Source of the DNA: Fimicolochytrium jonesii
Taxonomy: Eukaryota
Assembly: GCF_025526975.1 (NCBI RefSeq)
Contig: NW_026515669.1
Coordinates: 2,046,001 to 2,110,000 of the forward strand
Direction: 5' to 3'
DNA length: 64,000 bases
Shown here: positions 33,630 to 61,845 of the stretch, in pieces
Layout of the letters: each line of letters begins with the position of its first letter
How positions within the stretch are numbered: position 1 is the first letter of the stretch
Position numbers and translations under genes: made by a program
Notes under the pieces: model-generated
What the model saw: only the letters and a program-made list of their open reading frames with translations
What the model was told of the DNA's origin: nothing
The model's database searches: none

Positions 33630-33672
33630 GGGTTAGGGGTAGGGACAGGGTTGCGGCATGCGCGTCCTCCTA
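33630..33672 (+). repeat. Telomere-like repeat plus unique tail; direct copy of 37247-37289
   Basis: GGGTTAGGGGTAGGGACAGGGTTGCGGCATGCGCGTCCTCCTA versus GGGTTAGGGTTAGGGACAGGGTTGGGGCATGCACGTTCCCCTA; 38/43 identical by manual count. Confidence 0.85.
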
Positions 33673-34172
33673 CAGTAGTAGGATGCCAAAACGGACGTTA
33701 CGACGACATACATCACCGGCTGCCGTCTAGCCATTGCGTGGTTGACCGGGGACCGGCCAGCCGCGACTACTAACCTAGGTAGTAGCCCAAATGCCGTCAA
33801 TTTCGACGCGCCCGTCGTAACGTCCGTTTTGGCATCCTGACTGTAGGTAATCATTTAACACTGGCTGGGTGCAGGTCTATCCGGATGAAAAGCTATCTAA
33901 AAGGGCTTATAGTTTCGTGAAGGATTCTATGGTGGCGAGACGACTAACGGTGGGGCCTCTGAGTGAGAAGGGTTTACACTTCTGACCCCTCCAGGGTTAC
34001 CGCTGGCCCCCGCTATCCCGATATACCCCGGTGATATAGCGACGCAATATCCGCCAGGTCTCGGTATATCCATGTCCGGCCGGTTGGGCTAAGTCTGAGG
34101 TCAGACTTGCTCTCCAGCTGCCATTCGTCGTCATGACTCCATCACGGGGTAAAGATTGCAGTAGGTATCAGG

Positions 34173-34976: not shown

Positions 34977-35296
34977 CGAGGGTCTTATGGTTCTATGGAC
35001 GACGTGTTGGCGAGATGGACTCCGTTCAGAGGTTGCTTAGTAAGCTCTCTCTATTTTCTTCTCGAGTGACAGTATAAATAGGGAATTGCTAACGACGCCG
35101 TGTTTGCTATCCACGCTACCCTCCGCGCTTTTGACAGTAGCTTTTGACAGTCTGATTGCGACGCGTCGCATATAAAAGGCGACTGGCGCGCCCCTGGGCC
35201 CTTGGGTATAATGAGGCTCACTTCTGACGTGACCTTCCACCCCAGTTACCTTTCCTGAGCATTTTCGAGTGCAGGAAGTGAGCCACACACACACAC

Positions 35297-37145: not shown

Positions 37146-37289
37146 TTAGGGTTAGGGTTACAGGACTTAGAGTTAGGGTTAGGGTTAGGGTTAGGGTTAG
37201 GGTTAGGGTTACAAGACCCCCTGGGTTGGGTTTAGGGTTAGGGTTAGGGTTAGGGTTAGGGACAGGGTTGGGGCATGCACGTTCCCCTA
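37146..37289 (+). repeat. Interstitial telomeric repeat (TTAGGG)n with short interruptions
   Basis: Several perfect TTAGGG runs interrupted by ACAGGAC and ACAAGACCCCCTGGG, ending GGGACAGGGTTGGGGCATGC. Confidence 0.95.
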
Positions 37290-38865
37290 GTCTATTCGCC
37301 TTTATTGATTACCGGGCGAAGTCCTGGTCTAAGCGATTCCAGGTCTTCTCTCTGTGTAGGGAGGTGTAATCAACACTTGAAATCACTTGCATCGTCCCCG
37401 CGATTGTCCCGAGCAGACCATTGCAGAAGAGATCTTGCAGAGGTGGTAAGAGTGGGTCGGATTGAGTTCGGGCTATTCGTGTTCATATTTCTGATATAAG
37501 TGACAGCGTCACCTCCTTCGATCGGGAGCACTTTGTTTCCGCCGATACCGCAATCGAATGCGGAGTATTCATGGTTTCACAGGAGGTTAGATCGCCGGAT
37601 TTGAATCTCATCCGGTGCTCCATGATGCCCACGACTCCAGCCTCCTTTTTTTGTTGATAATGTGGGAGGCGATTTTGGAGTCCGTTCCGTTCTAAGCTTC
37701 CATACACTGCTCATTCGCGCAGCTATCGGCCTGCGCATTCATATGTTGACAGTCAAACACAATAAACGAAGCCCCCGCTCTTGACCATTGTCGCCAGCAA
37801 CCTGTTCGGGACGGGAACGCTATGGACGGGCGCACGGTCTCGTTCCATTGGGGCTGTTGACTCGCGTTGGCAGAGCCAAGGAACACGTCAGAGCTGTCAA
37901 CATTGCTGCCAAAACGGCCTGAGTTACGCCAACGCACATAGAGAACCCGACTGCAGAAATGTTGGAGATCCGAGGACACTTGCATCTGGTCATCCACATG
38001 TCAGAATATACTCTGGAGATACTGAAAACACTCGAAACCTGGCTTACCGCTATGAGGTTCCCACGTCGGACAGAAGGGTCCGAGGCAGACATCGCTCTGT
38101 CAAGGCCGACACATGGCACATGTCAGGAACCACAATTGCACGACAGCTCAAGGGGATCCGAAGCCTTGCTCGTACTCGGGGATTCCACCGTACCATTCCC
38201 ACATTGAAGCACTTCCTCCGTCCCGCTTCCCCAGGCTCTGCGGTGACTGCAACGAAGGGCACCACCCCACAGCCGAAGACTGGCTTGGGATCAGAGCGAG
38301 CGGGATCATTTCGCTTTTGATAAGTCTGGAGGTTCCGCCGGGGCAGGCTCCGGGTTTGGAGGCTAGAGACCGAATATGGCTCTAAAGGATAATCACACCA
38401 CACCCGACGAGATCTCATCATTCCACCCCGCGCCATTGCCGGCGGAGCCTGGCGGCCGAATCCACCGTCCACTTGCCGCTCGGCCAACCGCTTTTGATGT
38501 ATATCGGCCTATGTTTGTCGGAAGTGGTACTTTCACTTTCCAAAGTTGCATTGGGTCAACAGTGCGCTGTTGAATGGTTTTGGCCTTACAAAAAGGGTAT
38601 GCGAGGGTCATAGATGAAAGCAAAACCGGCAACGTCGCAAGCCTGCCCGACGAAAATAACTAATGGGGCCACCTTCGGCTCCCGTTTTCCTGCGTCGCAG
38701 GGCCGATGAGTGGGCGTGCCCGAGTTTCGGCGCCGAGGGCCTGGTCTGACATATTTGCCATGGTCAACTTACATTTCGAATGAGTGCACAGGGAAGGCGG
38801 GGCCCAAGCGGCGCTGCAGAGTCAGGTGTAGGGCCTACGAAGAGTCTCCAGATGGGACATCGGTC

Positions 38866-41761
38866 TCACCCGCGTTGGGCTTCCAACGCGTCCTTCACTG
38901 TATTAGAAGTCGTTCGCACTAGGTAGTCGCTCCCTACATTGTCATAATCGAGCGGCCAGACGATATCTCTCGGGATGCTCTTGCGTAGAACATCCCGTGC
39001 GTCGGCAGTGAAGATGACCCCATCTGCAGATGTTCCCCCGGGTTGCGATCGCTGCAAGGCCAGGAAAAGGCCCTCGGTGTTGGCTTCGAGCCGTACAAGC
39101 TTAGCGAAGCCAGGCAGCCCGTCGCTCTGCTCAATCCCCACCACTGCCCCAATGGGCGGGATGACGTAGCGAGGGGAAGAAGCGCCTTCTGTCCCTTTGT
39201 TGAAACCGAGAACAGCCCTCTTAAATGTGTCCGTCGCAAAGTCCACAGCTTTGCGTTTCCGCTCGATAGAGCCCGCGTCGTTGTACACGAGCTGCTGCAT
39301 TCTGATCCGTTCAGAGGAACGTCGTAATGTCAGCCAGCAGTCCTTCGATGTGCATCACATACATCACATACATCACATACCTGACGGTGTGCCGCATCGC
39401 ACGGCTAGCCGATTCTCTCAGGCGCTGATGGTCCAACCCGTCCGAAGATTCCACGAAAGTAGCGAAAGCATGTCGCAAAGCATTCGGCCCAACATGCGGA
39501 ATGCCCGAATGCTTCTCCACAAGACCGGAGATATACGCAGTCCATTGACTGGCATCATCGAATGCGTCCCCACTGCGCTTGCAGAATAGCAATCCATGAT
39601 CTTTACCGCACGTCGTAAGTTGGCGAACATCCGCACGCATGAGCCACAGAAGATATTTCAATAGAACTTCCTCATCCTTTGGCAGTTCTATTTTATCTTG
39701 CATGCCGTTCGATAATCTGTTTTTATAATCACTGAAGATGGGGCGTCGGTGTGCCTTCTTGTAAGTAATCAACTATTCAAACCTTCTGCAAAATTCACAT
39801 TCACAGCCACATTCACGTCTCACCTCATGACTGCAACATAACGCCCATGAGAGGTAGTTATATGGTTTTGCGATGACCCCCGACTCTCGGACTCGGGTAA
39901 GATGCAGCCCCAGAGCAGTCGGACTTCTTTCGACCTTGCAGGTGGCAACGCCGTGTATAACGACAACGCAACGAATGCCTGAGCTTCGGCAGCCAAAGCT
40001 TTAATAGGCTCATCCGAGGTCGCACCCCATAGTTCCAGCAGCGCCCGATATTGACGGTGAACGGCTTCGAGGACCTGGAAGAGCATATTGTCATCACATA
40101 CGCGCCAATATGCCAGACCCGCCAATACGCCAACGTTGACAAATGTTTCAACAATCTGGAAACGAACCTGTTCCCAGATGACAATGCCCCGAGGTTCAGA
40201 GTATTTCTCATCGTTCCTTTCCCTTTCCGCTAAGGTCTGTAAATTGTTACGAGCTCGCATCAACTTGCGGATCTTCAAGTTCGCTTCAGCTCCGCTACCG
40301 GATGCCTCTTCTGTTGTGCCGCGGTATCGCAACACGTCGAGGGCGCTACTCAGATGATTGCCTTTACTACCAGCGCTCAGACCTCTGACACGGCCGAGAT
40401 ATCCGTCTACATACTTTTCCTACCGCAATGAGACATTAGCGGTGAGTGCGACAACAGAGGATGTGGAAATGGCGTCAGAGGATCTCTCACCAAGAACAGG
40501 TCAACGTCTTCGAAATTCTCAAAGGATGGAGTTCGACAACGTCCCGACGCTTTCAGCCATCCTAGGAAACCGCAAATCCTTTCGCGCGATTTGGCGATCG
40601 TTTGTTCATTCCGAGGGTGAGCGTGGCCCCGCCTGAAATCGTGCGAGGCACTGAAAAATGCACGCAGATTGTGGAACTCCACGTGATTCAGCGGCGTCAT
40701 GTCGAAAGTCTGCAGTGTGTAGCATTTGAAACGGACCACGCTCTTGATGCCGCGGGATAAGTCGTCCCCATCCACGTCTGGCATAACGTCTCTCGGCCGT
40801 ATGGGTGGAGGAACCGATGGCGATCGACCAGAATCGTACGCGAGGGTAGGAAGGACCTCGTTTTGCGAGTTGACGCCGACGAAATCTCGCTGCTCATTGC
40901 TTGGAGTAGGTGGAAGGGGATTCCTATTCTCTGAAGGATTGCCGGGCGAGTCCGCTGCCCTCCGCCGCTCGGTCTCAGGGGTAGATGGCGGAGTGACATT
41001 TCGTAGCACCGCCCTTGACGTTGGAGTGTGGGGTACATCAACGTCAACCCGTTGATTTAGACTCGCATCACTGGCAGGTCTCGGCGAAGACACCTCATAT
41101 CTTTCCTCGGCTTCGTTGGATCTCTCATCGCCGCGACTCCGTGGATAGGCAGTGTGCGCCTCATCCATTTCGGCGTGATGAACTGATTGAGAAAAGGGAA
41201 AGTGAAGAAATAACATCAATTCTGAGTCAGTTTCGGTGCCACTTGAGCGACTCCGATTGATTTCGTATATTGCTATCGGATATCGAAGCTGCAAACTGGC
41301 CAGGGAGGGGATGGCATTTCCAACGCCGATTGGAATCGATGCAATTGTTACTCACCGGACGCCCGCGGCAAAGTCGCGCTATCGAGGGCCGTCAAAGTTT
41401 CTCCTTCCTGTTCTGTTGTATGCGTCCGCTGAGGAGGACCCTCCAGAAATCGATCGTCCGTATAGCCAATATCTCGAAGAAGCTTCCCTAGCGCAGCCTG
41501 CTGTACGAACGCCAGGTGGGAGGCCGTCGTACCGTAGGCCAACACCGCCTTGAACTCTCTCAGTTCCGCCCCAGTCAGAATCAGCACCGGGGCCTCAGAC
41601 TTCCTCCTGTTCAGCATGCCACGGATTCTTCCATACGCGACTCCTAGCGCGGAGCAGGCATCTTTGAGAAGCAAAAAGGTAGTGCCTGAACGTTCGTCTG
41701 TAGAAAGATCAATTAGTCGTTTCTCCAGGGTTCCCACGGCAAGGTGCGGATCTAATTCCAA
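38866..41761 (-). CDS. Tyrosine recombinase, spliced and apparently intact (may extend further upstream toward ~43 kb)
   Basis: Removing introns 41355-41183, 40490-40420, 40167-40075, 39823-39732 and 39380-39302 gives one open frame. It contains PPARSKE (R), SDYKN (K), PNALRHAFAT (xxLRH box), AMRHT (H) and MQQLVYND (catalytic Y). Confidence 0.85.
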
Positions 41762-44035
41762 CCTTTCAGTACAGGGACTGCAACATCGCCGACCCGCTTG
41801 CGCCAGATGAGCAGCGATGACGGGTACGCGGGCAGCTGTAAGCTCATCCTCGTCGGATTTCCACCTTCAATATACTAAGACACGGCGGCGAACGATGAAA
41901 AATCAGCTGCTCCCCCGGGGGGACGCGAGATGCCGCTCAATTTATGCTCGCTGGTGAGACGAGTCCTTGGCAACCAGACACGTGATGCGTAACCCTTCCA
42001 CCACAAACTTTCCACATGATTCACACCCTAATCGCAAACGGACTGAATGTCATATCGGAACCTCGACGTCAGCTCGAAAAGGCGCTGGCGTACAGCAAGT
42101 GAGCCCGAGGTCATCAGGGGGTCGAATTGAACATGCTGCTTGAATTCTGACGTGCCGCTGAGAACAAACTTTTTCAGCACAGCACCGAATGTTGTCCTCA
42201 CATATGAAGATCCTCGCACCTGTACGCCTACATCGAGAAGGGTCTCATCGTCAAAGCAGCACCTTCACACATCACTCTCGGCAGCGCTGAGGAAGAGACC
42301 CGGGATATCCAAACAGCGTACGGCGAAGTGGACCACTTGCTCTTGCAACCTGTAGCGTCAAGAAGCGTTCGTTCCTAGTTCGGTCACTTCCTCGGCGGCT
42401 GCATGCGTGGCTTGTCGTTCTTGTCAAAGTTCATCAAATATCCCTCCTGCTACCGTGGTGTTGGCATCAAAGAGCATGGGTGCGAATCGATGCTTCGAAC
42501 CATTTGCATGTGTCTCAATATATCGCATATACATTCCGTTTGCGACGGCGGCTGCAGTCTGCTAGGCGCAGTTATCGGCGGGAACAATTTGTGGTGGTGT
42601 TCGCCATGCGTTTTTCGAACTTCCTGCTGAATCCCGGTCCGCGATAGTGATATCAGCATTGTCTGTTCTGACGACAAAGAAAGGTGGCTCTAGTTGTGAG
42701 CAAAGGCGTACGTTGGAAACCCTATGCCTAACCATGCCCAGGATCGTTGATCGCTTCCCGATATAACAATCAAGCTGGCCGCAAGGTGCCGCCTCGGGTG
42801 TGGGTGCTGAATACGAAAACTGGTTAAACTGATCATCCCGAGCGGGTTGTTTGGAGCCAAAGTCCACTGAAGCTCACTTACACTGCGCTCCTTCCGGGCC
42901 CGTCGTAGCGTATCATCATAGTCCACTCTAACTTCGAGGCAGACATCAGTGTGTTGGTTAAAGATGGTAAGCTCCATGTCCGATCGCTGGCAACGCTTCA
43001 TCCTTGCAGAGGAAGCTAGCACTGTTATCGCGTCTCCCAAATAGCTCCCTGTGAGACAACACACGCGTCACAATGGATGTCCCGTTCCTAGATGCCTAGC
43101 CGCCGCACGCTGTGTGCATTGTCTAGAGTTTCAGCGACAGAGACGCCTAAAGGTCATCCTTCTGGCGCGACCTCGAAGGTTGTATGTTTTATTACGAATC
43201 GTTTATATAACGAATCGTTGACTCGGCCGAATCCCTGAACTTCGGGTTACAAGTTTACTACCGAGAGGCCACGTCCTCTTGCTGTTTGTTGCGTCGGTCC
43301 GTCAGGGTAATAGTGGGATGTCACTCGCAGCTGGACGGCGGAAGCCTTCCACCTAAGCGATCATTGAAACCCTCTCGACGTGACCGAACAGCCAGATCGG
43401 AGGTGCGATCGCGATTACAGTCGGGTGGTACTCAACTCAAGTGCACCTCCCAAATTCTAGCAAAGAGTACACACGTCGCGCGTGCCGTTCCATTCACCAC
43501 CGCCGTTGTAACAGCACAAATCGCTTTCCCTGCCTTTGCTCGCATATCGCTCCTTCTCACACCGAAAACTACAAAGCGACGCTAGAGCCCCCTTTCACCG
43601 CGCTGTTTCACTACTAGTTCGCTCACGTTATCAAGCGTCAAGCGTCAAGGTCAACTCTGGAGCCTTTCAGCCTTCTCCCATTTCTCAGCGAGCCGAGCCG
43701 CTATCGAGCTTAGAGATAGATATGAAGCCGAGGGTTCGAGTTTAATGAGATATAGCTTTCGGGTGGCCATCGTCGATGACGACTGCGTTTACGTCGACCT
43801 GTTACCATATTCGGTACTTCCCCGTTCGTTGACCCGTATCATTGTTGCCTGGGAATATGGCACTTGAAACAGAACCCAGAAGTTCTTCGCCAAGCACTTG
43901 CCCGGTATCTGGGAATTAAGTCCTGCTGGAGGATATAGTTTCCGATGCGAAAGAGCTTACACTTGCGATGGGCGTTGCGACTTTACGGCTTAGTGAGAAG
44001 CCCTGATCTTTCACAAGCGCGACCTCGGGATGGGA

Positions 44036-44310
44036 AGTTACCCGATTACCAGATAGCTGGTAACTTTGCTGGTAACTTCGGCACACGAAAGCATGAAGAT
44101 TGTAGGGTAGGGTGGAGCATCTGGTAATCTGGTACTTTCATTTCAAGATTTTGATCTGAAAATTTGAAAGAGAGGGAAACTGTTTTCATTTCTCACTGTC
44201 ACATCTGGAGAAGAGAAAGGTGTTCCGAAGATACCAGATATACCAGCTGGTCACCACGCAATCGATTTCCGATGGATGCCTTCGATTCTTTCGCGCGGGG
44301 AAGTTACCAG
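44036..44310. repeat. Cluster of TACCAG/CTGGTA motifs in both orientations (iteron-like)
   Basis: About eight copies, near 44047, 44057, 44069, 44121, 44129, 44232, 44241 and 44305. AAGTTACCCGATTACCAGAT (44036-44055) is nearly the reverse complement of ATCTGGTAATCTGGTACTT (44119-44137). Confidence 0.6.
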
Positions 44311-46509: not shown

Positions 46510-47520
46510 CGCCGTTTGGATGAGTCACAACACGCGTGCGTACTTTTGCGTCGGTTTCGGTCGGACATGATGTCCGAAAAATTCACACAAGCCACATCGA
46601 CTGGCTGGTAAGCCACCTACTCTGTGGCTAAGCCACTTCATGACGTTGCTAAGCCACTCCGAAGCGTCGCGGATCCGCCGGACAGGCTCTCTGGCAGCTG
46701 TAAGCTCGTACGGAATGTTGACCGCCTGTTAAATATGCAAACGGCCATAGGGTGAAAGACATGTTAAAGTCCTAACATGAAAGAAAGAGTAAGGCAAGAA
46801 GGGACAAACGTCGAGATCACGCTCATATTCGCACGAAACGGGTGCATACTTCTGGAGTGTTCAAGCTGTTCCCAGGCATTCTTCATGCTTGTCCTGTTGA
46901 GAAAGATAACTTTTACAACCCTGTGCGTCGTATAGTGATGTCCAGCAGCCCAAAAAGCGGCCGGCTGCCTACGGGGGGGGGGGGGGGTCTCCCGGACCCT
47001 CTTCGACAGGGGTTGCGCGCCGAGAAGGCGCCCCTTCCCAGAGAATGAAAGCCACCATCTCAGCCTCTCAACGGGCGGGCTCAAAGCAGGAATCCGTGCA
47101 GCCTACGGTTATCATGAGAAACAGTTGTGTCCGGTGGCAAAAATGGGCTTTCATTGCCTGACAAGTGGAAGTCGTTCTCCGCCGAAGGTGATGGTAACTT
47201 CACCTCATGTTGTTGCTTTGGTGGTGGTTTCGTTGTTTTTTTTTTGGTCTTGATGTTGATAACATGAACGTCCATGCTTTCCATGCTCTTGGTGATGTGG
47301 TTGTGGTGTCCTAGATAATATGTGATCATACCCGGACTCCATCCGCTGTATGGTTTGCTGCTGCAAGCGGTATTCGAGATTCACAGTCCAGCGGCCATAG
47401 GAGCGCTCTCCGGAGCTATCAGTCGATCTGCCGTCAATTCGGACGGACTCTCCGGGTGACTTCAAAGGAACCACCAACCGAGCATTGCCTCCCACGATGT
47501 TAGATACATTGATGTTCTTC

Positions 47521-47811
47521 TGTTATGTTGCGATTCAGTGCAACATACAGAACGTAACATCTGCTCAGGAATTCACATTCACGCACGAGGAGTGCAGATT
47601 TCTAATCTAGATTGGTGTTTTCTTTAGTTATTTTGTTATGTAGAAGTTGAGAACTAGAGGTCTATAGGGATTCCATAGATACCATGAGAGTCCTCACCAT
47701 AAGCGAGCCAAAGGTTTGGAAACCATCATAACAAAATAACATTTTGACCAGGAGAGGTTATCAACCCCAATTTACTTATTAACGGGTTGGATTTCAAGCA
47801 AACCGCTTGTT
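47521..47811 (+). repeat. Left copy of a ~290-bp inverted repeat; AT-rich, with internal TGTTATG/CATAACA motifs and a terminal palindrome
   Basis: Colinear with the reverse complement of 54956-55248; shared blocks include GAGGAGTGCAGA, AATCTAGATTGGTGTTTT, TCTATAGGGATTCCAT, GTCCTCACCATAAG and GGAAACCATCATAACAAAATAACAT. Confidence 0.95.
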
Positions 47812-47965
47812 ATGATTGTAAAACATAGCACAACAACAACCATAACAACATCGACAAACAACAACGTCAAAATCAGCATCAACATCAACAGCAACAGCAT
47901 CGTCACCGCCACGTCATCATTGTCATCATTGTCTTCATCACCACTGCATCATGTCGATGCTCCCG

Positions 47966-50900
47966 TTACTCCGTCCGCTTCAACGTCCAACCTAGAAGAA
48001 TCCGACCGGAGTTGTTGCAACTGCACCCTCCTTTGACTCGGTCCACTTTTTCTGGGACGTTCAGATTCATACCTTTGAGCTGCTTGGTGGTCTCCTTTGT
48101 AGATGGGCCGCGGAGCTTCTCGTCGTTATTCTCCCTATGCAGATGTTGTTCGAAGAGGTTGGCAACGCGGTGCGCGTGGATCTCTGCTTCAGCACTGGGC
48201 TCGAACGCCGAGTGGAACCAACTCGGAAATGGATTGTTCTCTGTCTTTTGCTCCTCAAGATTGGCGCTGACCTCCGCTGGTTCGGTGAGCTGTCGTCCTG
48301 TGGCGATGTGCTCCCGGTAGACTTCCATGAGCAGAAGGAGGAATTCGCCCGGCCACCGTTCCATCTTGGCACCAAGGTCAAAATCCACGAGCATTTCCTG
48401 GGGGCACTCCGGCCGCGGCGATTTCACAAACTTCACCTCAAAGAGGATAATCTTCAGACGTCGCCATAGCGCGTTCAAGTCAGTCCCCCCACCCGACATC
48501 TTCGGAATGTCATTGCACAGAAGTGTGGGTATAAACCGCGGGAGGAAAGACACGATTTTATTACTGTTACAATCCCGTGCGGATATGTGGTCGTTCCCAG
48601 AAAGGACCTTGATGAACGCACCGTTGGCTTTCTTCCCGGCCTCCAGTTCAGAGCAGAAGAGAGCTCTCTTGGTCGCGAGATCCACGAGATGTGGTGCTGG
48701 CCTTTGCGCGTCTGGCACTTCGTTGGTCAAGAAAGTAACCATCGGCTCCGCGAAAAGGAGGTGGGTGAAGACCATCTTGATGAACGACTTCAATTGAGAC
48801 TTCCCATTTCCTCCGCATCCGGTCCAAATCGTCGCGATCTGATGGGAGTTCTTTCCCTCTAGGCTCAAGGCCAGTGTCAGCAACAGGAATTTCCGAACCC
48901 CTTGGTTCGGCATGATCTGCTGGAAGAAACGAAGAATCTCAGCGCGAAGGACCGGGTCGGATCTGCCCGGTATGCTGTGGGGAAGCAAGTATGAAAGATA
49001 GTCCTCCTGGCGATGTTCCCGGAAACTTCCATCGCGCGAATCGAAGACGCCGTTCTGGAAACCGAGGAGGCAAGGGTTGCTATCAATCGGAACAGGAGGT
49101 TCGGTCGACTCTCGAAGCCGCTGTTCCAAATCGGCCATCACGTATTTCCTGCGGTTGCTGTTGCCGAGGTCCTCGACGATCATGTTCAACCATCGAATCT
49201 GCTTCCGGTCATTGTAGGAGTCGCGTAAAGAAGCGTACGTTCTGCTCACTTCTCTGGTCAAGAAGGCTCGCGGGGTTACTCCCTTGTTCCAGTACGAGCC
49301 TGTGAAACGATACCAGTTCTCGTCGATGAACGCGTACTTCCCTTTGATGGCCTCCTCGACATAGGCAGCAATGTCGTCGGTGCGGCCCATGGTCAAACTC
49401 TCGAAGCAGAGCTGGTCCAACCTTTCGTTGTCATGCGACCTCGGAAAGTCCGCCATGCGTCCAAAATCCCGGATATCTCCTTTACCATCATCGGTCGCGC
49501 AGTTCACGTTTATCACGTTGTTATTACCTTGGAAGAGAACGTTCGTCACGCTGCTCGGGACAGTCAACAATGGATGGCCGGGTGTGAAAAGGGTTCGGAG
49601 ACAGTGCAGGACGATTTTCCCAGTGGTGCTGCACTCGAGAAAGTTCTGAGGGTCTTCATGGTGCTTCTTGCACTTGATGCAGTAGAGGTCCCTCAACATG
49701 AGCCAAGCGCCCGATTCGTGGACTGCAGCTTGGTCTTCATCAAAGTCAAACTGATTTTGTGGATATTCTATTCGTAAACTGGCAAGCTCCTTGCCGATGA
49801 GATCGGCCCCGCTCCGTTTGTCCGCCTTCCACGCTAGTCCGCCATCGGTGGAACTTTTCAATACCCGACTGCGTAGAGCGTCCAAACTCTCGCATATTGG
49901 TTGTGGGATGGTATCGTATGTGATTCTTGAGCTCCGGGTGCCGCAGCCCTCGTCGTGACAGCGTATTTCGAGGGAGGTCCTATGGAGCAAGAAGTAGACG
50001 TGGTTCGCCTTGTGCTGACCTCGTTTGAAAGGACACGCCCGATCTCGAGTAGGAATGATAACCCCAACGTTTTCCTCCACCCTCTTCCCTTCCCCCTTCC
50101 GTTTGCCGGGCCCGGGGATGCGCCTGCTCTGGTCGATACATACGTTATTCCCGTCTGACAGGGAGAACTCCGTAGCTAGCCATTGCTTCAGTCCATCGTC
50201 TGTGACGTGGTCCCCGCTTGAGTTCGCCACGCTACCAGCCGCGTCAGCCAGCTCGGCTGTGTTCCGGAATTTCCCCGATGTCCGTGTGACGTCCGAGGTT
50301 CCCGTCGTCCGCTTTGTCGCCAGGCCAAGTGCGGCTTTCGCAGCGGGGCAGAGGGGTGTTACGCTGGGAACGGGTTCCGGGATGATACTGTAGTCGTCCA
50401 GATCTTCCCTGCAAATGCGCCGCCTGACGAATGTTGCGCTGTCCACGGGTTCGTAGGCGTAACGAAAAGTTCCTTTACCGAAGCGCATCTCGTATTTCTC
50501 CACGTCCCCGAGGTCCAGGCAATCCCCTTTGTGACATCCGAGGAGTCGCAGCCCCTGTCCGTTATAAACCGAGGTGTCGAGCCATTCCTTCTCCATCCCT
50601 GCTTTCAGACAGCCCTTCTCCAGCAGCCGCTTGCGCAAACGTTCACAAAAGCTTCTCGCGATGTCCTTGGTCACAGTGATGTCCGGACAGTTTACGTGAA
50701 TCTTTTGCATGCATCCCTGCGAGATAAGTAGACAAGTCCCGGCAAAGCCTACCCCATAGGAGGCAATGACTTCCGCTCTGATTCCCTGCACCACCTGCCG
50801 ATTACTTTGCAGGACCTCTTCGTCCGTTCCCACTTCGGAAACCTGAACATCCCAATCGAAGAACAGTCGGAACAGTCCATCCTGTGGTACGCGCTCGCAC

Positions 50901-51274
50901 AGAACGCACGGTGATGATCGGATGTGGTCCCCGGCCTGCTGCATCACCTGGAACAGCTTGTCATATAGGTCGGAGCGCACATGCCCAGAGGGCACGCTCA
51001 ACTTTGCGAACAGGCCTCGGCCGGGGAGGTTGAAGTGCGTCTGGTAACGTGCGTCGCCCTTCCTCATGCCCAGCTTTCGGGCCGCGTCTTTGTAAGTCTC
51101 GGGTGCCATCTCCATCCTTGTCGTCGTCGTCGCTGTCGTTTGCCGTTGTCTAACAATGGACAACAGAATTTTTTTCTTGTGACTTGAACGCGATGATGCT
51201 TCGTTCACCATGGTCGAAACTGATTTCAAAAGAGGACCGTCTGAGCGGTAGGCGAGTATCACACCAGAACGCAA
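47966..51274 (-). CDS. AEP (PrimPol-like) primase fused to Zn fingers and a D5-like SF3 helicase
   Basis: Intronless 1102-aa ORF. AEP motifs: RLFFDWD, KIHVN, LDTSVY..LRLLGCHK. Zn finger: CPFK..H..CHDEGC. D5_N-like: LLGFQNGVFD. Walker A: GCGGNGKS. Walker B: LFCSE. Also IKVLSGND, LLCNDIP and ALWRRL. The true start may be a downstream ATG. Confidence 0.93.
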   Translation of the reverse strand: MRSGVILAYRSDGPLLKSVSTMVNEASSRSSHKKKILLSIVRQRQTTATTTTRMEMAPETYKDAARKLGMRKGDARYQTHFNLPGRGLFAKLSVPSGHVRSDLYDKLFQVMQQAGDHIRSSPCVLCERVPQDGLFRLFFDWDVQVSEVGTDEEVLQSNRQVVQGIRAEVIASYGVGFAGTCLLISQGCMQKIHVNCPDITVTKDIARSFCERLRKRLLEKGCLKAGMEKEWLDTSVYNGQGLRLLGCHKGDCLDLGDVEKYEMRFGKGTFRYAYEPVDSATFVRRRICREDLDDYSIIPEPVPSVTPLCPAAKAALGLATKRTTGTSDVTRTSGKFRNTAELADAAGSVANSSGDHVTDDGLKQWLATEFSLSDGNNVCIDQSRRIPGPGKRKGEGKRVEENVGVIIPTRDRACPFKRGQHKANHVYFLLHRTSLEIRCHDEGCGTRSSRITYDTIPQPICESLDALRSRVLKSSTDGGLAWKADKRSGADLIGKELASLRIEYPQNQFDFDEDQAAVHESGAWLMLRDLYCIKCKKHHEDPQNFLECSTTGKIVLHCLRTLFTPGHPLLTVPSSVTNVLFQGNNNVINVNCATDDGKGDIRDFGRMADFPRSHDNERLDQLCFESLTMGRTDDIAAYVEEAIKGKYAFIDENWYRFTGSYWNKGVTPRAFLTREVSRTYASLRDSYNDRKQIRWLNMIVEDLGNSNRRKYVMADLEQRLRESTEPPVPIDSNPCLLGFQNGVFDSRDGSFREHRQEDYLSYLLPHSIPGRSDPVLRAEILRFFQQIMPNQGVRKFLLLTLALSLEGKNSHQIATIWTGCGGNGKSQLKSFIKMVFTHLLFAEPMVTFLTNEVPDAQRPAPHLVDLATKRALFCSELEAGKKANGAFIKVLSGNDHISARDCNSNKIVSFLPRFIPTLLCNDIPKMSGGGTDLNALWRRLKIILFEVKFVKSPRPECPQEMLVDFDLGAKMERWPGEFLLLLMEVYREHIATGRQLTEPAEVSANLEEQKTENNPFPSWFHSAFEPSAEAEIHAHRVANLFEQHLHRENNDEKLRGPSTKETTKQLKGMNLNVPEKVDRVKGGCSCNNSGRILLGWTLKRTE

Positions 51275-54001: not shown

Positions 54002-54295
54002 TCATGTTCTCGAGCGGCATGGTTGTGATTTATCTGCCGGAGTTGAATCTGACGCTGGGAAGTAAGATGTTCGCACAGACAGACCAGCGGTAGAGTTCCC
54101 GACGTCATCTTTCCTAATCCTTTCTATCCGGATGGGCATCTTTCCTGCATACTTGCCATCCCCAGCGAGGAGCATTGCGGTTGAGCCATTGATCTTGAGC
54201 ATCTGAGCGAGGGCTCGCAAGCTAGCCGCTTCGAACCTTTTCTCAAGGCCGTAGAGATCATAGGTGGCGATGTAGTCGTACTGTGAGGCCGGCAT
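54002..54295 (-). CDS. Small NUMOD1/IENR1-like helix-turn-helix protein (paralog of 52493-52690)
   Basis: RFEAASLRALAQMLKINGSTAMLL..PIRIERI shares the pattern EAxSLRxLxxxLxxxxxT..IER. Confidence 0.55.
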   Translation of the reverse strand: MPASQYDYIATYDLYGLEKRFEAASLRALAQMLKINGSTAMLLAGDGKYAGKMPIRIERIRKDDVGNSTAGLSVRTSYFPASDSTPADKSQPCRSRT

Positions 54296-54955
54296 GTACG
54301 ATGGATTGTTTGTGTTGTATAGAACCAGTCCGCAGATTTAATACCCCAATTTCTGACGCACTTTGCTCCGGAGTCGCCGTGCGTCACAACCGACGCCGCA
54401 AGCCCTGACAATGACAATCAATTTGGCAGGGCGTCACCTCCCGTCGATGGGGAGCGTCGAGCTATCATTTACCACTAACGTCCTGCTGAACACATCTTTA
54501 TGCCGGGTTTGTGCATGGCGGCTGAGCGATATAAGATATACATGACCGTCAGAATGCATCTGAGGGCATGGATGTTGGGGTCGCCGACTTTGACTGCCCA
54601 TCGTCGTGGTATCAAAACAGTGACAGGTCTACTGCCGGCTTTGGTGACTAACCTGACGCACGACTATTAGAGGAAACGCAAGGATGTACAGCCAGGGTGC
54701 CAGGGCAATGAGACATGCATGATTTCGGCTGTACCAACCCCGCACTACAAGTCGAGACTTTTTTATCCATTCACAGGGGATCAAAGGAGGTCTCGTCCTT
54801 GCAAGAATGGCTGTCGAGTTGCACGCCCGAGGACGATAAACGTGGAAGCAAATGGACGGCATGATGGCACGATATGTTGAAGTTGAGGTTGAAGTTGACG
54901 TTGACCTTGATGTTATGTTGATGTTGAGATGATGTTATGATAGAAAATGGTTCGC

Positions 54956-55248
54956 AACATGCGGTTCGCTGGAAATCCAACCCCCTCATAAGTAAATGGG
55001 ACCTGACGCGCTCTCCTGCTCAAAGATGTTATTTTGTTATGATGGTTTCCTAACCTTTGGTCCACTTATGGTGAGGACATTGATGGTATCCATGGAATCC
55101 CTATAGATCTCTAGTTCTCAAATTCTCCATAACAAAATAACACACAAAAACACCAATCTAGATTTGAATTCTGCACTCCTCATGCGTGAATGTGAGTTCC
55201 TGGGCAGATGTTATGTTGTGTTATGTTGAGATTCAGCGCAACATAACA
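54956..55248 (-). repeat. Right copy of the ~290-bp inverted repeat
   Basis: The reverse complement aligns to 47521-47811. It ends in the palindrome TGTTATGTTG-AGATTCAGCG-CAACATAACA (55219-55248). Confidence 0.95.
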
Positions 55249-56760
55249 AAACAGTATTTCCCCTTGGTGCAAGGATGAGGGATAGAACATTGACGATACG
55301 TTTTTTCAACAAGACCCCGCGGAGTACGAGGCGTTAACAACTCGTGAGCCCGTTGTCTGTCGGGATTCTGACAAATGGCGCTTCTTGTTCAGGGCCCTCG
55401 CCCCACATCATTCACACGGTCACATGTTTCAACTGGCCCGTCTGGTCCGTGTTTGTTAACCAACGTTTACCTGATCTTGACCGCGAGGTGGTAACTTATA
55501 CGGAGCGAAGCTGCCGCAGATGTACCAACAGCAACATGCGGGAATACGATATCGAAACGTCGCACTCTTCCGCCAGGGTCTAGGCAGCCGAGACCTTTAC
55601 CTGGTACTAAGAGGGGCAAGATGGAAACAATCGTGAGCGGTGCCGAGAGGATCAACTCATTCCGGAACGATACCCATCTCCATTCACGCGGGCTAGCTTG
55701 GGGAACACTGCCACCGCCGAAATAAATATTTCATATAAGTCTATATTGCTGATGGTGGGTGGAACATTGGCAACGGAGTGCCGAGGGAAGGGATGTGGGA
55801 GTGATTTTATGGGGCGATAACTGCACGTAGTCCTCTGGACATCCCACTGCCCGAGCGGGAATCATCATATTCTGTTGCTGCATGGCGCATGGCGGCTAGG
55901 CGAAGACCTCAATACAAAGGGCACAGGAAGATATCTACCAACGACCGACCGGAACTTGCATACCATTCGCGCAACTCCACATGCCTGTTCGTTTCCCGAA
56001 CAGCGGGAGGCGATGGGAAGCGAGAGGAACCAAGGGACAACCACATCCTGACGCCCTCTCTGCCTTACTCTTCGTCGTCAACCTCGATTCCCGTCTTCTA
56101 GCCGCTGAAAAGATGCCCCCTCACCCCGTAGAAAGTCTCATCTCTCCACAGCTCACGGTTGTCCACAGCAGCCCACCCCTCCAACCAATAAACGAGTTTC
56201 GGTGAAAATCTCCCATTTCATGAATACCTCGCCCTCTTGTGCGGTTCCGATAGAAACCCCAGGCTTTATTTTCACTAGCCACTGAATATCCACGTCCCCT
56301 ACCATCCTGTAGTCGGTAATTTCCATGTCTCTACCCGAATCGCAAATCGAAATTTGGTCGATGAAATATTCATCTCCGTGTTCCGAGTCGTACACGCGGG
56401 TCAGTGGGGATATATGTGGCGGCGAGGTTGACATGTGTTTGACATGTTTCGGGTTTTGACAGGGCACTGACAGCGACGGGCTGTCAAGGCTTGCTGCCCA
56501 GATGAATGCTGAGGTGAGCCATGGTATGGACGGCGCCATCCCTAACAACTCCATATCACCTTGATCCTAGGTCCGCGCATTGACTACCTCTGTCATCCCC
56601 CTAGTGAAAATTTCACCTGTAGCGGGACATCATCAATGTATTTACGCCTTCTTCCCGCTTGGATTTCATGTCATGAAGTTGAACAGGGATATAACGTAAG
56701 ATTTTGTTTATGAAAGAGAAACCCGGGTGAAGTATCCAGTATCCAGCAGGCAACGGTACA

Positions 56761-57387
56761 ATGTACTGGCAGTATCTCGGAATATGTGTACTATTTATCT
56801 TGGCGGTACAGGCATTGCAGGTTATGCCTCGCGCAATGCTCGTGACGATGCACAATAGTTGGCCTACCGGCAGTCAGGGACATTCCATGGCTCATTCCAT
56901 GGACGGGGTGAAACCTCTTGTACGAGTGACTGCAGGATTGAACAATGACCTCAACGCAGTGTGGAAACACATGAATGGGAAACGAGTTTTCCCCATCTTC
57001 CGCCGCCTGCTCCGTGGGCCCAGCGCTAGATCAGGAAAAGGAGGCTACATATACATGTTCCGAAACTTGAATCATGGAGGAGAACCCGATGACCAAGCGT
57101 GTTGGAAAATTGGCTGCACGGCAGCCAGAGTCGGGGTGCGAAAGCGCCTGCGTCAATGGGCAAAAAGTTGCGGCCACTCTCCCAAACTGATTGGTGAATG
57201 GAGAGTCACGAGATATAGCTTCTGTGAGAATCTCATTCATGCCGAGCTCAAAGCGCAAGGCAAGTGGTTGGGAAAAGTCCGCTGCGGTTGCAAGACTTCC
57301 ATGCATTGTGAGTGGTTCCGTGGGTCGCTCCATGAGATGCAGGACGTAATCTCGTTCTGGGTCGACTACGTCAATCGGTTTTACTGA
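56761..57387 (+). CDS. GIY-YIG superfamily protein, T5orf172/MUG113 type
   Basis: GGYIYMF..WKIGCT..RKRLRQWAKSC..CENLIHAELK..C.C..HCEWF. The real start may be downstream of 56761. Confidence 0.85.
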   Translation: MYWQYLGICVLFILAVQALQVMPRAMLVTMHNSWPTGSQGHSMAHSMDGVKPLVRVTAGLNNDLNAVWKHMNGKRVFPIFRRLLRGPSARSGKGGYIYMFRNLNHGGEPDDQACWKIGCTAARVGVRKRLRQWAKSCGHSPKLIGEWRVTRYSFCENLIHAELKAQGKWLGKVRCGCKTSMHCEWFRGSLHEMQDVISFWVDYVNRFY

Positions 57388-58100
57388 TATGGTATCGCGA
57401 AAGAAAGGCGCTTGGGGTAATGGGTTCATAGGGATTCCTACATTATACGAAGCTATGATGGTTGACTTCCTCAGAGATGTTCAACAGTGATTCGTGCTTG
57501 AATATGCCTACGGATATCTATAGCGGTGTCTTACAGGATCATTGAGCTCTCATGCAGGAACGATGGTCAGTCGGATGGCTTGTTCGTGAAATAGCCCAGC
57601 CCAGAGGAATCCGGGGGAATTGGGCAATGACCCAGTACCGAAGCTACGAGCTGCGAAATCGCTGATACCGGACACAAACGCGCGATATCCTCAACCGGTG
57701 AGCTCCGTCAAAGATCCGTATGCAGGTTGGCAGGCGGTTCTTTCGTTGTACCCCTTCATGATGGGATGGAGTATGGCACATGATTACCAGCACCAGGGTC
57801 GATGCTTCGGCGGCTGTTGCTGGCCGTCGAATGAGACTCCGGATTCATCTTCGGCCGACTTCCTGTACTCAGCGACGATTGAAGTGGACAAGTCGCTTCC
57901 CCTTGGGAGAAGGCGGCGCAGTCACTCACGCGTTCGTCTCTGCTGCGTCTCCTTCCTGATCCACCGGAAACTCCGATTAACGCTGCGTCCAGCCCACCGC
58001 GTTTTTTGCGGTTAGCGTTTGTCCTTTCGTGCCCTCCAAGAAGTATTAATACCCGAACCCGCTCGCTCCTGATGGTTGCGACCAAAGTAAAGTTCAGCTA

Positions 58101-59301
58101 ATGACCGGAAACAGGTTCGCAGCACTCGCCGAAGATGACGAATCTGTATCTGCGGTAGCCGCCGCAGATGCAGCACCTCCCCGCAGTCGGAAGCCTCGGC
58201 GGAGAATCGCCTCGCCTCCCCGCAACGTACGAGAGCCACCAATTTTCCCTGAAGAGGAGCCGTTCGACGATGATGCGGGACCTAGCCAGCACTATATGGT
58301 GTATAGCAGCACAACGATAGATCCGAGCGTCACGAAGGGCATGTACATGGAGTGGCGCTGGCCCCGCCGCTGCGAGGAGAACCCGACGGACCTCACCAAC
58401 CCGTATTATATCGCCATGATCAAGTGCGGCTGGTCCGCGTGGTCCGCGGCGAAGAAGTTCACAAGGAAGCAGAGTTCGCTGGACCGGGCTCCCGAGTGGT
58501 GCTTCTCGCCACGTTTCGGTCGGAGTCGCACCGTCCTCGATCGGCCGGTAGCATCAGTGGGAGGCTACATGCTAGAGGCCGGAACCAAGCTATTCATTGC
58601 CGGGGAGCACGAGGACTACTACGACGATGACTTTTGCATCTACAACGACGTCACCGTGGTCCGGCCCAACGGCGAGATTCGCATATACGGCTACCCGACG
58701 GACGTGTTCCCGCCTACCGATGGACACTCGGCCACTGTGGTTGGCGACAAGATTTGGATCATCGGGTCCGTGGGTTATATGTGGACGCGCGGAAAGGAAG
58801 CGCAGGTCTGCATCCTTGACCTCGCCACCATGCGCATGTCCCGGCACACTACAACTGGCGACGACCCGGGCTGGTTGGCGGGCCACGTCGTGACTCGGGT
58901 TTTCGAGGACGCGATCGAGGTGGAAGTTGGACAGGAGCCGTGCCCTGGAACTACGGCCCGGTCGGGCAAATGGACGCTGTATACCACCGATTTCAGGTGG
59001 GAGAGGAACACTGATGCGAACGTCGTTCCCGAGAGGACGTCGATGGACGAGGCCAGCTGTCGCGGTCTGACCGCTGTCCTAGATTTCTGGAAGAATCGTG
59101 GCGAGCTGTGCGTGTACGTGGGCGACTGCATTCGGTCGCGTCGACGTCCTGGAATGGTGGAAGAACAGTGGGCTGACTTGCAAATGGGAGGCGGATCCCC
59201 GTTGGCTCAAACGGACTTGTGCCAGCAACCCTAATAAAGCCGCGGTGAAGAAGTGGTGGACCGAAAACCAACTGAACCTCGAGCTTCGTTTTGGAAGGTA
59301 G
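58101..59301 (+). CDS. Kelch-like beta protein with C-terminal ankyrin-like repeats (frameshift near 59110)
   Basis: LFIAGEHEDYYDDDFCIYNDV..YGYP..FPPTDGHSATVVGDKIWIIG, then MDEASCRGLTAVLDFWKN, and in another frame GRVDVLEWWKNSGL. Confidence 0.7.
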
Positions 59302-59723: not shown

Positions 59724-60737
59724 TCAGATGGACTTCAGAATCCTCTCGCTGCAGAGTAGCTCGTACAACTTATCTTCCGCTTCCAAGTGCACGTCTAAAA
59801 GTGCATTTGCTATGTCCGATAAGCCCCGCCGAACACCAAACAGCAAGGCCAAGGAAACTTCTGCCACAAAACGAAGCATGTTTTGCCTTGTCCTCTCCCT
59901 CACGGGACTCCCTACATGAAAGCTGTGACTGTACAGATCCACCCACACCTGCCTGCCCACTAAGGACATGTCATCCGCTCCAAAGGGCATGTCGGAAACC
60001 GGGTCGTTCATGATACCGATGTATGTGCAGGAGGACAGCCTTCGCTCTATGTTTGCCGCTTTGTCCCGGGCGGCCACGCGGGGGCCCGCAATCTGGACGC
60101 AGTGCACAGGGTTCACCAGCATGCTCGCTGCGCAGAGAGCTTGTGCAGCCCCTAAACTGTAACCGGCGAAAATGACGCTGGTTCCATTCTTCCTTCGTTT
60201 CCGTCGCAACGCTTTCGCCACCTCGTCACGCAAACAATCCATGAGCGTCCTGCCGTTCGTGTTTTCCATAGCTTCGTTCAGCATTCCTTGGTGAGCCAAC
60301 GATAAGCCATGGTCTCCGCAGCGTTTGCTGTGTACCGCACGACATATGTCGTACAGGTTAGCGAGGCAACGATCTGAGCGTCTCGTGGGCCAAAGCGCGG
60401 CGGTATCCCATAAGGACCTCAACAGGAGACCGGGGAGACCTTCTAGGATCGTCGGTCGAAAGCAAACCCATAAGGCCCCGGTGGCCGTATTTTCTGCGAT
60501 CCTGACGAAGGTGCGATTGCCGTGCTGATCTCCATAGCAGGCCACCAAACGATACGTGTCCTCCTTATTTCCGAAAGGTTGCACGTACTGTATCTCCGCT
60601 TCTTCGCTCTCCGGTGTCGGTTCGATAGGGCTGGTCAGAAACAATACCAGTTGAGCCGCATCTCGTATGGAAAAGGACGAATGTTGCTCCAGGAGACCGT
60701 TCCGTCGTTCAGTGTCCTTCGCACGTCTTTTGCCCAT
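59724..60737 (-). CDS. Class-3 lipase-like alpha/beta hydrolase
   Basis: WVCFRPT lid region, AHQGM, nucleophile elbow FAGYSLGAA, AGPRV and NDPVSDMP. Confidence 0.85.
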   Translation of the reverse strand: MGKRRAKDTERRNGLLEQHSSFSIRDAAQLVLFLTSPIEPTPESEEAEIQYVQPFGNKEDTYRLVACYGDQHGNRTFVRIAENTATGALWVCFRPTILEGLPGLLLRSLWDTAALWPTRRSDRCLANLYDICRAVHSKRCGDHGLSLAHQGMLNEAMENTNGRTLMDCLRDEVAKALRRKRRKNGTSVIFAGYSLGAAQALCAASMLVNPVHCVQIAGPRVAARDKAANIERRLSSCTYIGIMNDPVSDMPFGADDMSLVGRQVWVDLYSHSFHVGSPVRERTRQNMLRFVAEVSLALLFGVRRGLSDIANALLDVHLEAEDKLYELLCSERILKSI

Positions 60738-61113
60738 GCTTTGCCCTTGGTGTGCCCCCGTGAACGCTGCAGTCTCTTTCCTGCTGTCGGCACTTTTGAA
60801 GCCACACGCGTGTCGTGCCCGACGTACTGTAAATTACATCGAGTCGATTCCTCGTTTCACCGGTGCAAACCTTTCTCCGGTCCCAAAGCGATAGGTACTA
60901 CTGGTGCAGTCCGGCAGTCCAGTAGGCGCTACGGGCACAGGTTAAGTTGTATTGGCGACTGAGAAGGACTTCCTCATGTCGTCGTTCAGCACCCGCATAT
61001 GGATTGACATAACACACAAACCAACACTCACACAGCGAGCACCACGAACCGGAACGTTGACCTGTCACCGGACGGGCAACCCGAAGTAGAAGGAAACCCA
61101 GCAGTTTACCAGC

Positions 61114-61845
61114 GTGACTTGGAGCACAGCAATGGGACGGACTATTACGATCCTGACCTGGAACATAGACGCAAGGATCGAAAACAGGGCAGAAAGGCTT
61201 GCCGCTGTCGGCGAGACTGTACGGAAACTGGACCCGGATATACTCTGTTTTCAAGAGGTCTTATTGGCCACCTATGGAGTCTTACAGCGTCTACTTGCTG
61301 CGGGCTGTTATGTCGATTCGGGATTTGCGCGCAGCGGCAGCGGCTTGCAAACGGTACTCTTCGCTCGCGACAAGATAGCCGCCGATTTCGAGACCGTCCC
61401 TCTCGCGAGCCGTATGGGCCGGACATGTGTTTTAGCTCGATGTCGAAAATTGAATCTGACGGTCGCCAGCTGCCATATGGAGTCTTTCAAGCACAATGTC
61501 GGACGCCGGTCGGAACAGACACTCCAGATCCATAGGGCTTTACTACCCGAAAACGCCGTCGTGTTGAGCGGCGACATGAACTTCATCCTTCCTCAAGAGG
61601 GTTTCCCCTCACCGTGGCTGGACGTTGGGCCGAGCGAGTACACGTACGACTCGCTGTCGAACACAAGCATACGAGACGGGTTCCGGTCGCGATTGGATCG
61701 CATATACGTTAAATGCGTGGGTAACATCGACTGCCGTTTAGTGGGGACGGAGCCTGTCGATGGCGTGTTCCCGAGCGATCATTTCGGAATCTACGCGGAA
61801 CTTACGCTCACATCTCAATCTGAAGAACCACCACCAGGGGGTTGA
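61114..61845 (+). CDS. Endonuclease/exonuclease/phosphatase (EEP) protein, TDP2-like
   Basis: ILTWNID, DILCFQEV, SRMGR, CHMES, LSGDMNF, YTYD..N, SRLDRI and PSDHFGI; the MGR, HxES and TYD..N..RxDR pattern is TDP2-like. Confidence 0.85.
   Translation: MTWSTAMGRTITILTWNIDARIENRAERLAAVGETVRKLDPDILCFQEVLLATYGVLQRLLAAGCYVDSGFARSGSGLQTVLFARDKIAADFETVPLASRMGRTCVLARCRKLNLTVASCHMESFKHNVGRRSEQTLQIHRALLPENAVVLSGDMNFILPQEGFPSPWLDVGPSEYTYDSLSNTSIRDGFRSRLDRIYVKCVGNIDCRLVGTEPVDGVFPSDHFGIYAELTLTSQSEEPPPGG

Follow-up and report, generated by a model that had tools for sequence, protein, structure and literature searches.

Cryptons, a group of DNA transposons built around a tyrosine recombinase (YR), have no long repeats and have been proposed to move by way of circles (PMC3212892), and both active insertions and clean excisions of Cryptons have been observed in Chlamydomonas (PMC9977147). 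Introns occur in about 75% of Glomhopper copies (PMC13465315), and introns alone are ordinary in a eukaryotic or fungal YR. The name CryptonV occurs in PMC5753468, and a survey that screened two chytrid genomes for YR retrotransposons detected no YR mobile elements in them (PMC3783388). Here we describe a YR gene of the spizellomycetalean chytrid Fimicolochytrium jonesii, located in a 64,000-nucleotide stretch of contig NW_026515669.1 (the window). The encoded protein belongs to a multicopy chytrid family and, with a probability that we put at roughly 0.55, mobilises its own compact Crypton-like DNA transposon. What we observe is the gene structure (from sequence and homology), conserved R-K-R-H-Y residues, the multicopy family, its shared introns and, for the homologue P0004, a modelled fold of the Cre/Xer type.

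The gene lies on the minus strand, where removal of six GT-AG introns joins an ATG at 41847 to a stop codon at 38866 in one frame of 802 codons. We take it to be genuine, with a predicted transcript of seven spliced exons (Table 1). The first-pass annotation had proposed that GT-AG splicing restores a single open frame from fragments, which holds as far as the stop at 38866, and had placed the last intron exactly, at 39380-39302, where it parts H655 from Y664. It counted only five introns, however, having missed the intron at 41762-41698 and the 85-nt exon 1 before it, with which P0003 and P0044 align from residue 1: the paralogue P0003 is 58% identical to the 802-residue model over 107 residues, and P0044 is 40% identical to its N-terminus over 109. 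Retention of intron 1, 2, 3, 5 or 6 would bring a premature stop at residue 32, 145, 401, 542 or 681, respectively. The public F. jonesii model P0002, which is 100% identical over exon 6, starts within intron 2 and retains intron 4.

In an alignment of 18 homologous gene models, junctions 3, 4, 5 and 6 are gap-free in 14, 16, 17 and 15 models, and the remaining models have an insertion, a gap, their start or their end at these junctions or next to them, with the exception of one that does not contain the junction-6 region. Specifically, the Geranomyces model P0011 carries inserts exactly at introns 3 and 4, the Borealophlyctis models P0056 and P0052 (order Rhizophlyctidales) carry them exactly at introns 5 and 6, and the stretch of exon 4 is missing from P0044. 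Junction 1 is aligned without gaps in two homologues, and junction 2 is placed by splice signals and frame alone, without homology support. We infer that introns 3-6 are older than the split of the two chytrid orders. These positions appear to be shared across genera and orders, and the long nuclear residence that had been suspected for this gene is supported at the level of the family, with retained-intron inserts of Geranomyces and Borealophlyctis falling exactly at introns 3-6.

The spliced product contains all of the motifs named previously (PARSKE, DYKN, NALRH and MRH) together with the tyrosine. With residues assigned by motif order rather than by measured geometry, all 18 homologues keep R504, K544 and R627, whereas 17 keep H655 and 16 keep Y664. 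The catalytic set had been described as complete; R, K, R, H and Y are indeed present, but the HxxR histidine, which we placed using the order of motifs in Cre and Xer recombinases, corresponds to N624. Among the 18 homologues this position is occupied by asparagine in 12 and threonine in 6, and by histidine in none. The H of NALRH stands after the arginine and is not the HxxR histidine. As read from the sequence, the set is one residue short of canonical. Variation of the HxxR histidine is tolerated in active YRs, and recent function of the protein appears plausible.

The fold was modelled on P0004, whose core is 62% identical to the window YR, using a 40-sequence alignment (pLDDT 81, pTM 0.62). 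A two-domain YR fold of the Cre/Xer type, with core-binding and catalytic domains, spans residues 33-405 of this model. Foldseek returned six PDB matches at E ≤ 0.001, all of them Cre, XerH or XerA, and a wider structure search matched XerA (Z 13.8, root-mean-square deviation (rmsd) 16.6, 274 aligned residues), Cre (Z 12.9, rmsd 5.4, 295 aligned) and XerH (Z 12.5). The identification as a tyrosine recombinase is supported by these matches. Sequence-only searches of the PDB gave no significant match, and among the 40 family members phrog_1 integrase was detected in 9 and Phage_integrase in 3. Within a library of viral structures, giant-virus proteins came first, with E values of 2.8e-9 to 8.2e-7 at ranks 1-5; an integrase of Harvfovirus is among the top ranks, and the first named phage integrase appears only at rank 12.

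Additional domains appear to flank this core. The extra C-terminal domain noticed in the first-pass annotation is present in the P0004 model, where residues 419-495 resemble barrels of the Tudor, PWWP and chromo types. The best match (Z 6.7, rmsd 1.6 over 55 residues) has a weak score, below the value of 8 under which a match may mean merely a common arrangement; a Tudor-like barrel at the YR C-terminus is therefore offered as a lead. At the other end, an Atlas model of residues 1-108 of P0003 matches Ski_Sno_DHD (TM 0.60-0.61) and Bro-N/ORF6N clusters (TM 0.61-0.64), and its Atlas feature matches are Bro-N-like (0.89-0.90). The same N-terminal domain is found in P0044, P0058 and P0040, and a segment previously described as resembling a helix-turn-helix (HTH) falls within it. 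Two distant relatives, P0022 and P0032, have a Ski_Sno_DHD N-terminus by Pfam and a similar C-terminal region. A profile comparison between the chytrid domain and these Ski-like N-termini was not significant (probability 0.3%) and Pfam gives the chytrid domain no name, so that the predicted Bro-N/Ski-Dachshund-like fold derives from the Atlas model alone.

All 31 proteins recovered by a profile search belong to six chytrid species, which represent two orders: F. jonesii (4), Powellomyces hirtus (4), Geranomyces variabilis (10), G. michiganensis (4), Thoreauomyces humboldtii (5) and Borealophlyctis nickersoniae (4). All named members are annotated as hypothetical or uncharacterized. A quick tree of 36 rows cut to the core, made with no bootstrap, with long branches among the distant relatives and with no known Crypton, Starship or viral reference among its rows, united 30 rows of chytrid type, including the unnamed P0007, in a single clade (SH-aLRT 97). 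It also displayed expansions at the level of species, including near-identical Geranomyces copies, as expected for a mobile family. Two copies, P0005 and P0006, are damaged and lack the segment that bears the first arginine. Distant unnamed proteins are 24-34% identical to the YR, with P0022 and P0032 at 24-29% to the core of the window protein; P0015, P0018 and P0021, which appear to be false matches driven by repeats, were excluded from all alignments. The Atlas neighbours of P0004 form a eukaryotic cluster, in which Cnidaria is the commonest phylum (phylum known for just four members), and a cyanobacterial cluster. We found no description of the family in the literature searched, which extended neither to supplements nor to the Repbase CryptonV report; the PLV (polinton-like virus) and Mycodnaviridae supplements and that report could already contain these sequences.

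In the compact, Crypton-like transposon that we favour, these observations would fit together as follows. The YR protein would be made and active, with Y664 forming a covalent link to DNA, the Bro-N/Ski-like N-terminal domain binding DNA of the element and the Tudor-like barrel contacting chromatin or DNA. The element would be excised as a circle and then reintegrated elsewhere, with short homology at the termini guiding both steps, in line with the model put forward for Cryptons (PMC3212892). Its YR lineage would be akin to the recombinases of giant viruses and PLVs and long resident as a spliced nuclear gene, and the copy in the window would happen to sit at the left edge of a virus-like region that also contains separate, independent primase modules, with which such elements would share virus-like or repeat-rich parts of the genome. 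Besides the open frame, the conserved residues, the Cre/Xer fold of P0004 and the species-level expansions described above, further observations favour this arrangement. First, inverted repeats surround a primase unit alone, bracketing 47.5-55.25 kb with primase A and small open reading frames (ORFs) inside and the YR outside, and neither reverse transcriptase (RT) nor capsid nor packaging ATPase was found among the window ORFs scanned with Pfam. Second, no primase was found with four of the five named F. jonesii YR models, since the search detected no primase relative on the three contigs that carry them, nor anywhere in Powellomyces, which has four YR models; the search covered proteins of 614-1955 aa (7990 scored candidates).

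Several points weigh against the compact transposon. The predicted fold belongs to P0004 and not to the window protein itself, and the HxxR histidine is replaced by N or T throughout the family. No element ends were found, and no related YR locus was found in the viral contigs, metagenome contigs or annotated phages searched. Because the primase search was limited, its failure to detect a primase close to the other YR copies carries little weight. Finally, Geranomyces repeats the sequence YR, primase A, primase B, a recurrence that a small stand-alone transposon explains solely by a shared insertion preference.

This recurrence is an argument for a second explanation, which we regard as possible at less than even odds, namely that the YR acts as the integrase at the end of a large (>25 kb) integrative element, either PLV-derived or a Starship-like element of chytrids. 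Its cargo would comprise AEP-D5 primase-helicases, a repeat-array origin, T5orf172, a lipase and an endonuclease/exonuclease/phosphatase (EEP) nuclease, and the element would be excised in circular form and use the primase-helicase that it encodes for its replication. In F. jonesii one contig holds the YR KAI8826285, primase A KAI8826286 (the next annotated gene) and primase B KAI8826295 (10 genes on). In G. variabilis one 317-kb contig holds the YR KAJ3134968, primase A KAJ3134983 (15 genes on) and primase B KAJ3134986 (18 genes on). Between the genera the A-A pair is 74% and the B-B pair 71% identical, as against 24-36% for cross pairs. In the tree the YR at the Geranomyces primase locus belongs to a recently expanded clade and is not sister to the window YR, which argues against one old fixed insertion. 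By a hand estimate with uniform placement, the Geranomyces co-location would arise by chance in about 1% of cases, assuming up to 3 YRs, ±18 genes and about 9,000 genes (from locus tags); clustering of repeats would raise this figure.

Further features appear to be common to the window and a Geranomyces primase B locus. In P0073, a fused model from another G. variabilis assembly, the part upstream of primase B reads like a translated CTGGTA array, with weak statistics: tblastn of this N-terminal piece against the window gave just E values of 0.11 and 1.0, at the CTGGTA array, and the link consists of collinear motifs and a motif count of 12 as against at most 5 in 533 background stretches. P0073 ends in a piece that shares 65% identity with the small ORF at 54002-54337 of the window (E 4e-29). 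In the window, the array comprises eight CTGGTA/TACCAG words at 44046-44310, within about 260 nt (Bonferroni 4e-5), and this stretch folds, as DNA, better than 100 of 100 shuffles (z -4.9). No primase directly follows the window array (44034-44310), unlike the similar motifs upstream of Geranomyces primase B.

Published observations also suit a large element. YRs correlate with AEP/PolA replicases in polisuviruses (10.64898/2026.10.13.758929), PLV genes have been reported in chytrids, Octocorallia and Hydrozoa (10.64898/2026.06.19.733378), phaeovirus YRs are located near element ends (PMC13236599) and PLV end modules offer a precedent (PMC11296320). Separately, a lone giant-virus capsid gene is described on a host-like contig of an F. 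jonesii isolate (PMC13533422), a contig that may or may not be that of the window. The top viral fold matches of the YR are giant-virus proteins, and the gene lies at a boundary: to its left are a frame for a MULE transposase, accompanied by TTAGGG tracts, and multi-domain EGF/fn3 genes, and to its right the AEP-D5 primase is followed by T5orf172, Kelch, lipase and EEP ORFs, which are compact and virus-like. Single-frame ORFs of these kinds are common in large DNA viruses.

Set against the large element, primase A bears its own inverted repeats, and its distance from the YR differs, at one annotated gene in F. jonesii as against 15 in G. variabilis. Six introns interrupt the YR, whereas the primase is a single open frame. 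A Pfam scan of 155 window ORF references (43 + 112; of 220 stop-free frames of at least 95 aa, those omitted mostly overlap scanned frames) revealed neither a capsid nor an A32/packaging ATPase; PLV capsids are often invisible to Pfam, and the region continues past the end of the window. Most YR copies have no primase nearby within the length-limited search, and two primases have no YR locus tag near them, although their contigs, of 31 and 40 kb, are perhaps not long enough to reveal one. Apart from the window itself, a single independent co-location was observed. No relative of the primase locus was found in the viral contigs searched. The mosaic YR-primase element proposed in the first-pass annotation therefore stands in part: YR and primases recur together in Geranomyces, but the inverted repeats enclose the primase alone. 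The 7.7-kb unit at 47518-55251, in which diverged inverted repeats enclose an intact AEP-D5 primase-helicase and small ORFs, is similar in size to a transpoviron and may itself be a mobile replicase module.

A bolder form of the large element, which we consider rather unlikely, would posit a group of giant integrative elements of chytrids with an intron-rich, chromatin-reading YR at one end, AEP-D5 primase-helicases, a CTGGTA origin and variable virus-type cargo. Such elements, descended from PLVs or giant viruses, would correspond to Starships but copy themselves and occur outside Dikarya, and the YR transposons of cnidarians would be reduced relatives. Least probable, and indeed improbable, is a domesticated or immobile remnant serving as a recombinase-derived host DNA-binding or chromatin protein under host selection, which would suit the conserved intron positions, the lack of histidine at the HxxR position, the added Ski-like and Tudor-like domains and the precedents of Ndc10/Gcr1 and ZMYM (PMC3212892), but not the retained catalytic tyrosine, both arginines, lysine and last histidine, the high lineage-specific copy number with damaged copies, or surroundings that consist of mobile elements.

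Coordinates of the YR gene and of the features to its right are collected in Table 1.

Table 1. Features of the YR gene and its surroundings in the window.
Feature	Coordinates	Strand	Remarks
YR exon 1	41763..41847	-	85 nt, from ATG 41847; absent from public model P0002; P0003 and P0044 align from residue 1
YR intron 1	41698..41762	-	65 nt, GT-AG, with CTAAT branch-like site; retention gives stop at aa 32
YR exon 2	41356..41697	-	with exon 1 encodes predicted N-terminal Bro-N/Ski-Dachshund-like domain, about aa 1-107
YR intron 2	41183..41355	-	173 nt; least certain boundaries (unconserved linker)
YR exon 3	40491..41182	-	Pro/Ser-rich linker and beginning of core-binding domain
YR intron 3	40420..40490	-	71 nt; same position in Geranomyces model P0011 (insert)
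YR exon 4	40168..40419	-	core-binding domain
YR intron 4	40075..40167	-	93 nt, in frame; kept in public model P0002; insert at same place in P0011
YR exon 5	39824..40074	-	R504 (R in 18/18 homologues)
YR intron 5	39732..39823	-	92 nt; same position in Borealophlyctis model P0056 (insert)
YR exon 6	39381..39731	-	K544, N624 (HxxR position), R627, H628, H655; Phage_integrase E 0.042
YR intron 6	39302..39380	-	79 nt, between H655 and Y664; insert in Borealophlyctis P0052; P0058 ends there
YR exon 7	38866..39301	-	Y664, putative C-terminal Tudor-like barrel, stop codon
CTGGTA/TACCAG cluster	44034..44310	.	8 words, in either orientation; may be a replication origin or an array that binds protein
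Inverted repeat, left arm	47518..47860	+	about 330 bp; 88% complementary over best 199 nt
Primase A	47966..51115	-	1049 aa, one open frame from Met at 51115; AEP and D5/SF3 helicase
Small ORF	54002..54337	-	within inverted-repeat unit; 65% over 77 aa to piece after primase B in P0073
Inverted repeat, right arm	54910..55251	-	primase A unit
T5orf172/MUG113 ORF	56731..57387	+	E 3.8e-15; possible cargo
Kelch-repeat ORF	58050..59234	+	E 1e-7, under curated cut-off; possible cargo
Class 3 lipase ORF	59724..60833	-	E 3.1e-8; possible cargo
Endonuclease/exonuclease/phosphatase ORF	61090..61845	+	E 3.6e-14; possible cargo

Upstream of the YR, short ORF pieces with a possible intron occur at 42400-43070 (minus strand) and have no convincing family match. 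Pieces in this region had been considered as possible further exons; those at 42.4-43.1 kb are rejected as such, because exon 1 begins at ATG 41847 and the homologues likewise begin there. The YR and primase A are 6.1 kb apart, and between the YR and the primase unit lies an apparent one-intron gene (45294-46524, minus strand), for which a convincing family match is likewise lacking; the consecutive accessions of the YR and primase A show that this gene is absent from the public models. Inside the primase unit, small ORFs at 52530-52922 and 54002-54337 (minus strand) are alike by eye and include a short HTH-like segment, and no target-site duplication was seen by eye at the inverted repeats. 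By accession order, the second primase gene (primase B) lies past the end of the window.

On the left side, a MULE/FAR1 transposase region at 35282-37149 (in 33615-37290) is interrupted by in-frame stops and followed by TTAGGG tracts at 37145-37265. These tracts were rejected as a demonstrated insertion site: they come directly after the MULE frame, and their flank has a direct-repeat partner at 33630. The direct repeat in question, of 43 nt, occurs at 33630 and 37247, and a small hairpin-ended element is found at 33680-33838. Several direct repeats of 30-115 nt with GA tracts at 32491-33210 are probably the ends of another repeat family. Further to the left, two long genes with few interruptions, on opposite strands at 505-5480 and 14142-27015, contain fn3 and EGF repeats and probably encode host surface proteins, and a DDE_3 transposase fragment (11367-11915) lies between two G-rich 21-nt tandem arrays in inverted orientation (8229-8498 and 12725-12930), 4.3 kb apart.

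The locus merits follow-up for its domain set, its kinship to viral recombinases and its recurring primase linkage, and not for its introns alone. A spliced, multicopy YR akin to those of giant viruses would connect viral integrases with eukaryotic DNA transposons. Insertion guided by chromatin would be suggested by a recombinase with a Tudor-like domain; a 2025 paper on a Gypsy element presents it as the first transposable element for which a Tudor domain is reported (PMC12477816). Should the primase linkage hold, early-diverging fungi have an element that replicates itself and carries cargo, which could account for the entry of viral genes into their genomes and for the movement of these genes there; if it does not, the family would be one more Crypton-like family, perhaps CryptonV.

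Several known recombinase systems were compared by their markers. GCR1_C (CryptonF), DUF3504 (CryptonA/Glomhopper) and DUF3435 (Starship) were each found in 0 of 40 members by Pfam at E 0.05. CryptonF is not supported, with GCR1_C missing and the YR C-terminus modelled as a beta barrel; nor is CryptonA/Glomhopper membership, with no DUF3504-type YR, or a Starship captain, with no DUF3435. The earlier impression that the protein resembles neither Crypton nor Starship recombinases thus holds for CryptonF, CryptonA and Starship, whereas CryptonV, S and I were outside that scan. DIRS/Ngaro elements are rejected: no RT/RNase H ORF lies near the YR, with no reverse transcriptase in the Pfam scan described above (which short exons could escape), and there are no matching inverted or split direct repeats.

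Cre, XerD/XerH/XerA and the integron integrase share the two-domain YR fold with the chytrid protein, which differs from them in its 10-17% identity, its extra N- and C-terminal domains and its replaced HxxR histidine. Starship captains (PMC10104507) are likewise fungal YRs, and the chytrid YR may also head a large cargo region; unlike Starships, however, it has no DUF3435, its host is a chytrid rather than a member of Pezizomycotina, it points away from the candidate cargo and ends were not found. Starships are further characterised by direct and inverted repeats that bound a large cargo region and by polymorphism between strains. The best viral structural matches are the YRs of giant viruses and PLVs (Pyramimonas orientalis virus, Hokovirus, Harvfovirus and Tetraselmis virus 1), and AEP-D5 primase, T5orf172 and lipase ORFs nearby give the window a further likeness to giant viruses and to PLVs, whose end modules are described in PMC11296320. 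The chytrid YR nevertheless is only 13-16% identical to these viral YRs and has six spliceosomal introns, and the Pfam scan of the window showed no capsid or ATPase gene and no relative was found among the viral contigs searched. In a PLV a YR and a primase-helicase module would adjoin the terminal repeat; here the two genes are both present, but the repeats enclose only the primase unit.

CryptonV elements are described as cnidarian YR DNA transposons, some of which target microsatellites (PMC8869645, citing Kapitonov and Jurka 2012). Their possible likeness to the chytrid YR lies in this description, in the Atlas cluster nearest P0004 with Cnidaria as its commonest phylum, and in the N- and C-terminal regions of the unnamed relatives P0022 and P0032; we encountered no fungal report of CryptonV in the literature, and P0022 and P0032 are just 24-29% identical to the window core. 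From the other Cryptons the chytrid YR differs in having neither GCR1_C nor DUF3504, in its added Bro-N/Ski-like and Tudor-like domains and in the N or T at the HxxR position. The 4-6 bp terminal direct repeats expected of Cryptons were not located at the single YR copy of the window, and no long repeats were found around it. Like CryptonF, S, A and I (PMC3212892), the chytrid YR is eukaryotic and multicopy and has no adjacent RT, and it shares with Glomhopper (PMC13465315), in whose YRs introns are common, a spliced recombinase gene.

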